From NCBI RefSeq assembly GCF_003334405.1, contig NZ_QOWM01000004.1: a DNA stretch of 64,000 nucleotides; one strand, 5' to 3'. This document shows positions 55,775-63,963 of the stretch, piece after piece. A program made the translations under genes and the position numbers. The notes beneath the pieces are model-generated. The model did not search any database. It saw only the letters and a list, made by a program, of their open reading frames with translations, and was not told the DNA's origin. Position 1 is the first letter of the stretch; every line of letters begins with the position of its first letter. The stretch is from Escherichia coli. GTDB lineage: Bacteria; Pseudomonadota; Gammaproteobacteria; Enterobacterales; Enterobacteriaceae.

Positions 55775-55895
55775 GGACGTAGCGTAAACGCCTGATCCGT
55801 CCAACGGTTCGGATTTTGTAGGCCTGATAAGACGCGGTAGCGTCGCATCAGGCATCTGTTGCCGGATGCGGCGTAAACGCCTTATCCGTCCTACG
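55775..55895. repeat. REP/BIME cluster between hcxB and ybiJ
   Basis: GTAGGCCTGATAAGACGCGGTAGCGTCGCATCAGGCA and TGCCGGATGCGGCGTAAACGCCTTATCCGTCCTAC inverted REP units. Confidence 0.75.
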
Positions 55896-60564: not shown

Positions 60565-61491
60565 ATGTCCGCCCAGAAACCGGGGTTGCATCCGCGCAAC
60601 CGTCATCACAGCCGCTACGATCTCGCCACGCTTTGTCAGGTCAATCCTGAACTCAGGCAATTCCTCACGCTTACACCCGCCGGGGAGCAAAGCGTAGACT
60701 TTGCCAATCCGCTGGCGGTGAAGGCGCTCAATAAGGCGTTGCTGGCCCATTTTTACGCCGTAGCGAACTGGGATATCCCCGACGGTTTTCTCTGCCCACC
60801 AGTACCGGGCCGGGCGGATTATATTCATCACCTTGCCGATTTACTGGCAGAAGCAAGCGGAACAATTCCAGCGAATGCCAGCATTCTGGATATCGGCGTT
60901 GGTGCGAACTGTATTTATCCGCTGATTGGCGTACATGAATATGGCTGGCGTTTTACCGGTAGTGAAACCAGCAGCCAGGCGTTAAGCAGTGCGCAGGCGA
61001 TTATCAGTTCTAATCCGGGGCTTAACCGCGCCATTCGTCTGCGTCGGCAAAAAGAGAGTGGGGCGATTTTTAACGGCATCATCCATAAAAACGAGCAATA
61101 CGACGCGACCTTGTGTAACCCGCCATTCCACGATTCCGCCGCTGCGGCACGGGCAGGTAGTGAGCGTAAACGCCGTAACCTGGGGCTGAACAAAGACGAT
61201 GCACTGAACTTTGGCGGCCAGCAACAGGAGTTGTGGTGTGAAGGCGGTGAAGTCACCTTTATCAAAAAGATGATTGAAGAGAGCAAAGGCTTCGCGAAGC
61301 AGGTGATGTGGTTTACATCACTGGTATCTCGTGGTGAAAACTTACCGCCGTTGTATCGTGCCCTGACGGACGTGGGCGCGGTGAAGGTGGTTAAAAAAGA
61401 GATGGCCCAGGGGCAAAAGCAGAGTCGCTTTATTGCCTGGACCTTTATGAACGACGAGCAGCGCCGCCGTTTTGTCAATCGCCAGCGTTAA
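60565..61491 (+). CDS. rlmF: 23S rRNA (adenine-N6)-methyltransferase RlmF
   Basis: 308 aa from the internal ATG with AAAGGAG RBS; SAM motif I ([15 protein letters not shown]) and N6-adenine methyltransferase motif IV NPPF. Confidence 0.9.
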
Positions 61492-63713
61492 AGCGTTGGT
61501 TCCCCCGGCGGTAACGGTTCAGCCGGGGTCGCGCCCGGAGCAGGCAGCACCTGATAAGTCTGCACTGGCGCGCGAACGCCCGCCAGGTCGAAATGTTTTT
61601 TCACCTGGCTGTCGAGGGCAAAGCGTACCGTCCACTGTTTGAGTGGCAGCGTGGTGAACGAAACACGCAGTGTAAACGCGGTATTGCTTAAGCCGACAAT
61701 CCCGGCAAAATTCGGTTCACCAATAATCAGCCCGCGAATTTCTTCGTTTTCCATTAATTCCGCTACCGCATCTTTCAGTGCCTGATTGGCTTTATCAGCA
61801 TCTTCATGGCGATCAACATCATAATTTGCCACCACCGAACCAATGCCGCGGACAAAGTTAGCAAAGGTGGTTATCGAAGACCACGGAATGATGTGATACG
61901 CCCCGGTATCCTGTCGTACGCCCACGGAGCGAATCGACATCCGTTCCACTGTGCCGGTCAACGGCCCGATAGTCACCAAATCTCCAGTGTTCATGCCGTT
62001 TTCAAACTGAATAAATACCCCGGTGATAATATCTTTCACCAGCGTTTGCGAACCAAACGAGATAGCCAGACCTAATGCCCCGGCACCTGCCAGCAATGGC
62101 GCGATATTGACGCCGATTTCCGACAACACAATCATGATGGTGATGGTACTGATAATCACCGCCAGCGCGTTACGAAACAGCGTAAGCAGGGTACGCGTGC
62201 GGGCGCTGGGTAGCGGGCGGCCATGAATATCCGAAGCCAGCCGGTTTTCGATCAAACTGGCGAGCACCGTCCAGCCAACCGCCGAGAAGAAAAGAATGAG
62301 TGCGATACGGATCAGGATATCTACGGTTTTCTGCCCCGCGCCGTTTTGCAGCCAGTTCCAGAAATCGAACAATCCCCATGCGCTCAACAGCAACATTACC
62401 GCCACGCAGACTGTCAGAATACGCGCCGTTTTCAGCGCCGCCGACAGCCAGCCATTCAACCGTTTTTGCAGCTCCGGATAGTTACGCTGAGTATGTGGCG
62501 AGAGAGTGATGGTTTTCGCCAGCCAGCGGGAAAACATACCGGAAACAAACGCTGCGATACCAATAATCGCCAGGCTGCGCACCGTTGCACCCATCATAAA
62601 TTTCAGGCTGTTGCCCGGATCGAACAACGAAAAGAAAAACAGCACGATAAAATAGGCGCTTGCCAGCCAGTGCCACACCAGCGCAAAGGCGCGGATAAAC
62701 AGGCTGAAAAAGGCCAGCGAATGCTCCGCGAAGTTGAGCAAATGCTGGGTAATCTCTTTTTTATTACGAAAGATCAGGTACAACGCCCAGACGGTCATGC
62801 ACAGCATAATGATGACGTTCGCCAGCGCACCTATCTGTACATTCACCTGATTAGAGATAATCGGCACGGCCACAATCAGGCCATAACCTATCAAACTGCT
62901 TAACCAGCTCAGGCGACGACTCCAGTAACGGGCGCTCTCGTCCTGAATCGTGAACGGGCGCAGCTCCGCCACGTTTGGGCAAAAAATCAGGCGTAGTACG
63001 GCTTTGAAAAATTCAATGAGGGCAAAGGCGTTGAGAAACAAACTTTGTTGGAAAGCGATGGTGCGACTGCCTGCATTCAGGTTGTCGCTTAATACCTGGC
63101 CGACAAATAATGTCAGGGCCAGTAACAGCAGGTCGATAATAAACGCCCCGATAATCATCGCCGGAAGCTGCAACCAGTTGCTGCGCTCACGATTTTTTTG
63201 CCGCGCCCACTGACCCATTTTGCGATACAGCGGCAGTGCGCACAGGCGAATCAGCCAGTAAAAACCAAACACTAATACCGCTAACATTGAAAAATGGGTC
63301 AGCGCATTGCTGAAGGTTTGTGGATTAAACGGCTTATGCGGGGAGCCGGTGATATTGCGATAAAGTTGCCCGAAGCGGGCGGAAAGGGCTTCACCATAAT
63401 GGCGGCTGACTTCGGTGACCTTTTGCAGCACGGTTTGCTCTTCGACCAGCGTCGGCGGCACTATTTTTGGTACCGGTTCAGCAGGGGGCGTAGCGGCAAC
63501 GGTGCGCAACTGGTCGATCAACTCTTTACGCGAGGTGTCATTATCCAGCACATCCGCCAGTGCGCCATAGGCCGCTTTTTTTTGTTCGATATCCGGTTCC
63601 GGGGCCGGTTCAGTCGTTGAGTCCGTTGTCGTTGTGGTTGTAACGCCGGGTATGGATACCGCGTGGGCAGGTGCGCCCAGCAGGCAGAAGAGGATGAACA
63701 GGATCCACCGCAT
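61488..63713 (-). CDS. ybiO: MscS-family mechanosensitive channel with extended N-terminal periplasmic and multi-TM region
   Basis: 741 aa from the internal ATG ([18 protein letters not shown] signal peptide) with a GGAGGAG RBS; Thr-rich low-complexity stretch after the signal peptide; C-terminal MscS channel domain. Confidence 0.88.
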
Positions 63714-63862
63714 GACTCCTCCAGTGAGAAAATAGAGCAAAAAGATAAGTATAGATGCTGGAGGAGGGGCGATTTTAAATGAGAGGAATCTGGTGTGCCT
63801 CCCTTTCGGGTGAAAGGGAGGAAGGGATATTAAGCAGGTTGCTGACAACGTGCGGGCTTTTT

Positions 63863-63963
63863 TGCCGGATGCGGCGTGAACGCCTTATCCGTCCTACAAG
63901 TTCATGCAATTTTAATAAGTTGCCAGATATCCTGTAGGCCTGATAAGCGTAGCGCATCAGGCA
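63863..63963. repeat. REP/BIME element upstream of ybiO
   Basis: TGCCGGATGCGGCGTGAACGCCTTATCCGTCCTAC ... A/T-rich spacer ... GTAGGCCTGATAAGCGTAGCGCATCAGGCA. Confidence 0.75.

Follow-up and report, generated by a model that had tools for sequence, protein, structure and literature searches.

The window analysed here, a stretch of 64,000 nucleotides of Escherichia coli DNA, contains a gene for an MscS-type channel with a long, Thr-rich N-terminal extension. The size of this extension raises the question of what opens the channel. The first-pass annotation had suggested that a signal from the periplasm or the envelope gates it and had drawn attention to the Thr-rich stretch; membrane tension acting on an enlarged membrane domain is the other answer. 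The identity of the gene, the layout of its product and the conservation of each N-terminal segment were therefore considered together with the published physiology of the channel.

Gene identity and the MscS-like core

A 2.7-kb stretch of the locus was found to be 100% identical to DNA of E. coli K-12 MG1655, where it is annotated as ybiO with rlmF and glnQ as neighbours. The encoded protein matched the NCBIfam equivalog NF008542, which represents the YbiO orthologue group, from end to end (residues 1–741 of 741), scoring 1566 bits where the cut-off is 596. Both results confirmed the gene name given in the first-pass annotation. The ybiO locus was found in 5421 of the 5426 complete E. coli genomes, and the gene order glnQ-ybiO-rlmF is common to E. 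coli, Salmonella bongori and Citrobacter. A phmmer search against solved chains and a Foldseek search retrieved the PDB entries 7A46 and 9GO3, the sequence of which is identical to that of the 741-residue protein in the window.

The Pfam modules of the MscS family were located at residues 376–454 (MS_channel_TM1), 516–556, 557–621 and 628–714, with E values of 1e-10 for PF21088, 8e-18 for PF00924 and 1.5e-13 for PF21082. Matches of phmmer to solved MscS chains extended from residue 462 or 476 to residues 717–719 (best E = 1e-29). MscS homology thus makes up the last ~35% of the protein, and the earlier placement of the channel domain in the C-terminal third therefore holds. The AlphaFold2 model aligned by Foldseek with 9GO3 and 7A46 at 100% identity and a probability of 1.00, and with MscS structures at target-normalised TM-scores of 0.6–0.75. 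Helices TM9–TM11 of the core are the equivalents of TM1–TM3 of MscS; with its pore-lining TM3-type helix, β domain and cytoplasmic cage, the C-terminal region of ~260 residues forms a canonical MscS core. Seven chains are present in each of 7A46 and 9GO3, in line with a heptameric assembly, and a heptameric mass of YbiO has been reported (PMC3508906).

The MscS of E. coli (286 residues, three TM helices) has the pore helix, the β domain and the C-terminal cage in common with YbiO. The two proteins share PF21088, PF00924 and PF21082, and their target-normalised TM-score in Foldseek is ~0.6–0.65 over ~265 columns. YbiO is indeed much larger than this minimal channel, as had been remarked, with 741 residues and 11 TM helices; beyond MscS it adds a signal peptide, a periplasmic region of ~122 residues and eight TM helices.

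The deposited structures cover the MscS-like core. Entry 7A46 (2020, 'small conductance mechanosensitive channel YbiO') has 223 modelled residues per chain and 9GO3 (2025, 'Sub-open structure of the mechanosensitive channel YbiO') has 253. Because only so many residues are modelled, the N-terminal ~470 residues are experimentally unseen, a coverage judged here from the number of modelled residues alone. The primary structure paper on YbiO is reportedly that of Flegler et al. in PNAS in 2020.

All these data indicate that the region is almost certainly ybiO of E. coli K-12, encoding a heptameric, tension-opened inner-membrane channel of the MscS family with the N-terminal layout described below, and no observation speaks against this identification. 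Already known are the gene itself, what the channel does and how it is regulated, as well as the architecture of 11 TM helices plus periplasmic region and the structure of the core. What is new here is minor: a conserved helix-kink-helix at residues 42–74, and the absence of the N-terminal ~470 residues from the deposited structures.

Topology and the periplasmic region

The coordinates of all features are collected in Table 1.

Table 1. Features of the ybiO locus in the window.
Feature	Residues	Position	Strand	Description or basis
Candidate sigma-S-type -10, TCTATACT		63748–63755	minus	TATACT at 63753–63748; upstream of ybiO
Shine-Dalgarno GGAGG		63718–63722	minus	4 nt upstream of ATG 63713; invariant in five species
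ybiO CDS	1–741	61488–63713	minus	741 codons and TAA stop at 61488–61490; list of open reading frames
Signal peptide	1–18	63660–63713	minus	A-x-A site; predicted SPase I cut after AHA
Thr/Pro-rich low-complexity tail	19–40	63594–63659	minus	Sequence; mature N-terminus
T6 run		63624–63641	minus	Codons ACA ACC ACA ACG ACA ACG
Conserved helix-kink-helix	42–74	63492–63590	minus	AlphaFold2 helices 42–57 and 59–74
Second low-complexity, Pro-rich linker	75–94	63432–63491	minus	pLDDT <50 at 76–89
Amphipathic pre-TM1 helix	95–123	63345–63431	minus	AlphaFold2 helix; hydrophobic moment up to 0.5
Extra helices TM1–TM8	~141–450	62364–63293	minus	Hydropathy peaks; AlphaFold2 helices, pLDDT mostly >90
MscS-like core	~462–719	61557–62330	minus	TM9–TM11, β domain, α/β C-terminal domain
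C-terminal tail	720–741	61491–61556	minus	Pro-rich, predicted disordered; mean pLDDT of 10-residue blocks 43–55

An exhaustive homologue search gave 1737 representatives at E ≤ 1e-30, from which 112 full-length homologues of 680–900 residues and 25–40% identity were aligned; Halomonas, Pusillimonas/Alcaligenaceae and Cardiobacteriaceae are among their sources. The AlphaFold2 monomer model was built from 119 homologues and reached a mean pLDDT of 85.7, with low confidence confined to residues 13–39, residues 76–89 and the C-terminal tail.

The signal peptide was recognised as a hydropathy peak at residues 3–21 followed by a conserved A-x-A site. A18 is kept in 95% of the distant homologues, the residue at +1 is Gln in 79%, and 89 of the 112 sequences carry a small-x-small site. 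Cleavage presumably takes place after Ala18 and would put the N-terminus in the periplasm. The signal peptide proposed earlier is also stated in the literature, where YbiO is described with 11 putative TM spans, extensive periplasmic domains and a short N-terminal signal sequence (Edwards et al., 2012; PMC3508906), an architecture repeated in later papers (PMC13041993; PMC12344017).

Hydropathy and the AlphaFold2 model both gave 11 TM helices after the signal peptide, eight of them beyond the MscS-like core. The topology prediction that had been recommended as a check hence bore out the many additional TM helices. The short cytoplasmic loops contain 23 Lys and Arg residues versus three in the short periplasmic loops; the positive-inside rule is obeyed and this bias fits an N-out/C-in topology with 11 TM helices. 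Eight extra helices would enlarge the lipid-facing sensor domain. The N-terminal part runs in the order of signal peptide, disordered tail, helix-kink-helix, second Pro-rich linker, amphipathic pre-TM1 helix and eight TM helices.

The region between signal peptide and TM1 (residues 19–140, ~122 residues) is non-globular in the model. The soluble periplasmic region announced by the first-pass annotation does exist in the periplasm; it is, however, small and consists of two or three short helices and two predicted-disordered low-complexity segments, residues 13–39 and 76–89. The helix-kink-helix at residues 42–74 was the only periplasmic element conserved across the ~110 distant homologues. Its nearly invariant pattern reads L52-x3-L56-[DE]-D-x3-R62-x2-L65-I-x2-L69, and L52, L56, R62, L65 and L69 each recur in 90% or more of the 119 aligned sequences. 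The mean pLDDT of 10-residue blocks at residues 41–70 is 73–84, and the Pfam scan returned no family over residues 42–74. The second linker, which follows, is Ala/Pro/Glu-rich in the homologues and varies there from 9 to 71 residues in length.

Gating and comparison with MscK and MscM

The physiology of YbiO was described by Edwards et al. (2012; PMC3508906). Expressed in the channel-less Δ7 strain, from which all seven mechanosensitive channels are deleted, it gave stable pressure-activated openings of ~17 pA, corresponding to ~1 nS, with a PL:PX of 1.21 and a threshold between those of MscS and MscL. Over-expression of YbiO guards cells against down-shock (PMC3508906). For these recordings, patches were excised from giant protoplasts, which are free of the wall and the outer membrane (PMC3508906). 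As the channel opens there by pressure alone, membrane tension is sufficient and an envelope signal is not required, which speaks against the proposed gating by such a signal. YbiO would thus open directly under membrane tension and release solutes during hypo-osmotic stress. Its opening tension is higher than that of MscS (PL:PX of 1.21 versus ~1.5–1.6). We infer that it is the additional TM helices, together with the small periplasmic part, that set this high threshold, and that they do not serve to receive a distinct signal from the periplasm.

The closest parallels in architecture are MscK and MscM (~1100 residues), which share with YbiO the general plan of a signal peptide, a periplasmic N-region, 11 TM helices and an MscS core. 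The combination of an N-out signal peptide and 11 TM helices that characterises this class was found in YbiO by hydropathy, by the distribution of 23 versus 3 Lys and Arg residues and by AlphaFold2, and chains of MscK were aligned by Foldseek with the YbiO model over 626–665 columns. In contrast, MscK and MscM own periplasmic helical bundles, PB1 and PB2, of ~450 residues, and the periplasmic part of YbiO is about four times smaller. A ring domain of the PB1/PB2 type is absent from YbiO, which has helices 42–74 and 95–123 and two disordered linkers; it has accordingly been credited with 'a much smaller periplasmic domain' (PMC13041993). Sequence similarity of MscK and MscM to YbiO is limited to ~75–100 residues of the pore and β region, and BLASTP with the N-region gave only chance-level matches to the two proteins (E at least 0.06). 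Compared with MscK and MscM, YbiO shows a higher conductance and a lower mechanosensitivity, and no ion dependence is reported for it.

The alternative that survives best is that the periplasmic N-region, chiefly the helix-kink-helix at 42–74, modulates gating, either by tuning threshold or hysteresis or by conveying an extracellular cue; the region could assemble in the periplasm into a ring of seven-fold symmetry, as PB2 does in MscK and MscM, or touch a component of the envelope. This is the defensible version of what the first-pass annotation had proposed, and we regard it as possible but on the doubtful side. The conservation of five residues at 90% or more over 112 homologues of 25–40% identity, between flanking segments that are free to vary, speaks for such a modulator. 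In MscM, deletion of the membrane-proximal periplasmic bundle leads to a higher opening pressure and less hysteresis, and the same authors linked the lower mechanosensitivity of YbiO to its smaller periplasmic domain (PMC13041993). MscK, moreover, needs external K+ besides tension for opening (PMC13041993; PMC12344017). By analogy with these channels it is plausible that the periplasmic part of YbiO may tune the gating threshold. Against a modulator stand the gating of YbiO by pressure alone in wall-less excised patches (PMC3508906) and the failure to detect similarity between its N-region and either MscK or MscM beyond the core; a ring, furthermore, is beyond what a monomer AlphaFold2 model can show. 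The literature search found no truncation study of, or other experiment on, the N-region of YbiO.

Direct opening by tension is the preferred reading. A further reading, which appears rather unlikely at present and is offered as a speculation, is that what counts functionally in the periplasmic extension is an unannotated module, modelled in neither cryo-EM entry, and not the Thr run. From the alignments, this candidate module would combine a short [ILV]PG motif at the start of the mature protein with a disordered spacer whose sequence is free and with the nearly invariant helix-kink-helix, and it recurs throughout a broad proteobacterial group of YbiO-like channels of ~750–850 residues. It might form a seven-fold periplasmic cap or a tethered element which sets the unusually high gating threshold or couples the channel to the envelope.

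Thr/Pro-rich tail, start codon and upstream region

Residues 19–40 correspond exactly to the Thr/Pro-rich stretch quoted in the first-pass annotation. It had been called a linker, a term which does not apply, since after cleavage of the signal peptide the stretch lies at the mature N-terminus and is therefore a free tail rather than an inter-domain linker. The T6 run within it is statistically unusual, being expected 9e-5 times in a protein of the composition of YbiO, and it is the only run of six or more identical residues in those open frames of the window that have at least 100 codons. Residues 13–39 were predicted to be disordered (AlphaFold2 pLDDT <50).

In orthologues from Citrobacter and Salmonella with 85–90% identity, the segment keeps its length of 22 residues and is preserved on both sides: it opens with V[STA]IPGVT and closes with [AT]P..EP (PAPEP). 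The middle is hypervariable, with TTGTDAGAQTT, TSTASTSPQTE and ASPAADAKTT as examples, and the T6 run is therefore specific to E. coli. In the distant homologues the columns of the run are mostly gaps (occupancy 0.06–0.3), and the tails are 0–68 residues long and contain above all Ala and Pro; their median Ser+Thr fraction is 0.16 (n = 112). Close to the mature N-terminus, 18 of these 112 sequences have an [ILVFM]PG motif, versus 1.0 ± 1.0 in shuffled tails. A length polymorphism of the Thr tract within E. coli was also considered and rejected: 5420 of 5422 genomes match the 261-bp 5' region with an identity of 95% or more. Two E. coli genomes fall in the band of 90–95% identity, and in one of them, EM18-18-42, the lowest-ranked among the matches listed, the difference is a deletion of 19 bp that shifts the frame within the signal peptide and does not lie in the Thr tract.

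A role of the Thr-rich stretch as a specific functional site, such as an O-glycosylated, mucin-like linker, is highly improbable. The rarity of the T6 run would speak for a site, as would the Ser/Thr runs that a few distant homologues have there (SSSSS in P0140, TTTT in P0137 and P0235). However, a G/A/S/D/P-rich sequence of the same length replaces T6 in the orthologues with 85–90% identity, only nine of the 112 homologues reach a Ser+Thr fraction of at least 0.35 in the tail (median 0.16), and the segment is predicted to be disordered. The Ser/Thr-rich character which a mucin-like linker would preserve was not conserved among the orthologues; no conserved Ser/Thr site is present, and nothing speaks for the O-glycosylation-like modification that had been suggested as a check. 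No general periplasmic O-glycosylation system or general O-oligosaccharyltransferase is known from E. coli K-12. The weight that had been put on the Thr-rich stretch is not justified by a run which is E. coli-specific, gapped in the alignment (occupancy 0.06–0.3) and of low predicted confidence (pLDDT <50). Selection on such a disordered tail would act only on its low-complexity character and not on its sequence.

Translation from ATG 63713 gives the 741-residue protein, ending at the stop codon 61488–61490. The open frame reaches further upstream to TTG 63848, which mechanically makes an ORF of 786 residues, and the view that this longer protein is the real product, with the signal peptide turned into an internal TM segment, can be practically discarded: although the early annotation of the ybiO start was uncertain and 135 bp upstream were retained in one clone (Edwards et al., 2012; PMC3508906), the TTG start is unsupported because MRWILF is where the orthologues and the NCBIfam model begin (every one of them at MRW or MR..LF), the invariant GGAGG lies 4 nt before ATG 63713, the upstream 135 nt diverge between species and are not preserved as coding sequence, holding a conserved hairpin and a promoter-like -10 element instead, and both deposited PDB constructs carry the 741-residue sequence, with query residues 1–741 in full.

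The alignment of the upstream DNA revealed TCTATACTTAT as invariant in E. coli, S. bongori and three Citrobacter species. It contains TATACT, which we take to resemble the sigma-S -10 consensus. This sigma-S-like element came to light through the alignment only; the consensus promoter scan did not predict any sigma-70 promoter on the ybiO strand. Native YbiO is induced specifically by NaCl in an RpoS-dependent manner (Edwards et al., 2012; PMC3508906), and the candidate -10 fits this published dependence. RNA folding of the glnQ-ybiO spacer paired CUCCUCCAG with the Shine-Dalgarno region CUGGAGGAG. Such an anti-Shine-Dalgarno hairpin, a possible cause of poor protein yield, was rejected, as its upstream arm is not kept in Salmonella or Citrobacter and sits further upstream than the conserved -10-like element.

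Within the N-terminal two-thirds of the protein, the comparative analysis presented here directs mutagenesis to helix 42–74 and to the extra TM helices, and away from the Thr tract. Such work could help to explain how accessory domains control the differing tension thresholds among the MscS paralogues.

Conserved elements of the periplasmic region of YbiO

Across 112 full-length distant homologues of YbiO (25–40% identity), only one element of the periplasmic part was found to be conserved, a helix-kink-helix formed by residues 42–74. In the alignment, the residues L52, L56, R62, L65 and L69 reached a conservation of at least 90%. No Pfam family covers residues 42–74, and they are also missing from the modelled part of both PDB entries of YbiO (7A46 and 9GO3).

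A second, shorter feature is a PG motif located close to the predicted mature N-terminus. All enterobacterial YbiO orthologues carry one. Among the 112 distant homologues, 18 (including P0140, P0164, P0165 and P0177) have an [ILVFM]PG no more than 14 residues away from their predicted mature N-terminus, against 1.0 ± 1.0 in composition-preserving shuffles. At the opposite end of the protein, the cytoplasmic C-terminus displays a second Pro-rich tail which is predicted to be disordered.

Features of the ybiO region and other RNA elements, with window positions
Feature	Position	Strand	Basis or location
Helix-kink-helix, YbiO residues 42–74	63492–63590	-	conservation in homologues
SIPGVT, YbiO residues 20–25	63639–63656	-	motif recurrence in homologues
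Pro-rich C-terminal tail, YbiO residues 720–741	61491–61556	-	
Candidate -10 element TCTATACTTAT	63745–63755	-	invariance across species
CUCCUCCAG/CUGGAGGAG pairing	63714–63768	-	
GC-rich hairpin CCTCCCTTTC/GAAAGGGAGG, 10 bp	63798–63821	-	between glnQ and ybiO
REP-type palindromic repeats	~63860–63960		inserted 3' of glnQ in E. coli
Shared stop palindrome TTAA	61488–61491	rlmF +, ybiO -	sequence
Moco riboswitch, 103.6 bits	35145–35289	+	Rfam gathering threshold
naRNA4, two matches	24092–24162; 55821–55891	+; -	Rfam gathering threshold
ES036, two matches	33839–33880; 50543–50585	-; -	Rfam gathering threshold

Upstream region and RNA elements

Alignment of the region upstream of ybiO showed that TCTATACTTAT is unchanged in E. 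coli, Salmonella bongori and three Citrobacter species. This candidate, which resembles a sigma-S-type extended -10 element, was missed by a scan with the sigma-70 consensus, and it fits the published RpoS dependence of ybiO. The Shine-Dalgarno region CUGGAGGAG can pair perfectly over 9 bp with CUCCUCCAG; this pairing is probably not functional, since conservation of its upstream arm does not extend to other genera, and this arm is located 5' of the -10-like element.

The GC-rich hairpin is conserved in Citrobacter, and in S. bongori compensatory changes preserve it. It probably serves as the terminator of glnHPQ, although it is not followed by a T-run. The glnQ–ybiO spacer reaches about 260 nt in E. 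coli versus about 118 nt in Salmonella and Citrobacter, due to the insertion of the REP-type repeats, which also explain the dozens of megablast match places per genome obtained for the ybiO region. Elsewhere in the window, the Moco riboswitch match is consistent with the moaA leader on the K-12 map.

Convergent end and natural disruptions of ybiO

The stop codons of rlmF and ybiO overlap within the TTAA palindrome, leaving no terminator between the two genes. The same 4-nt overlap is present in the S. bongori and Citrobacter loci (L004–L007).

In several E. coli strains, ybiO is broken by IS elements (ISVsa5, IS1, IS621), and strain EM18-18-42 harbours a frameshifting 19-bp deletion in the signal-peptide codons (genomes behind these cases: NZ_CP114792.1, NZ_AP027759.1, NZ_CM176584.1, NZ_CP103570.1 and NZ_CP063473.1). 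Some E. coli lineages can therefore do without ybiO.
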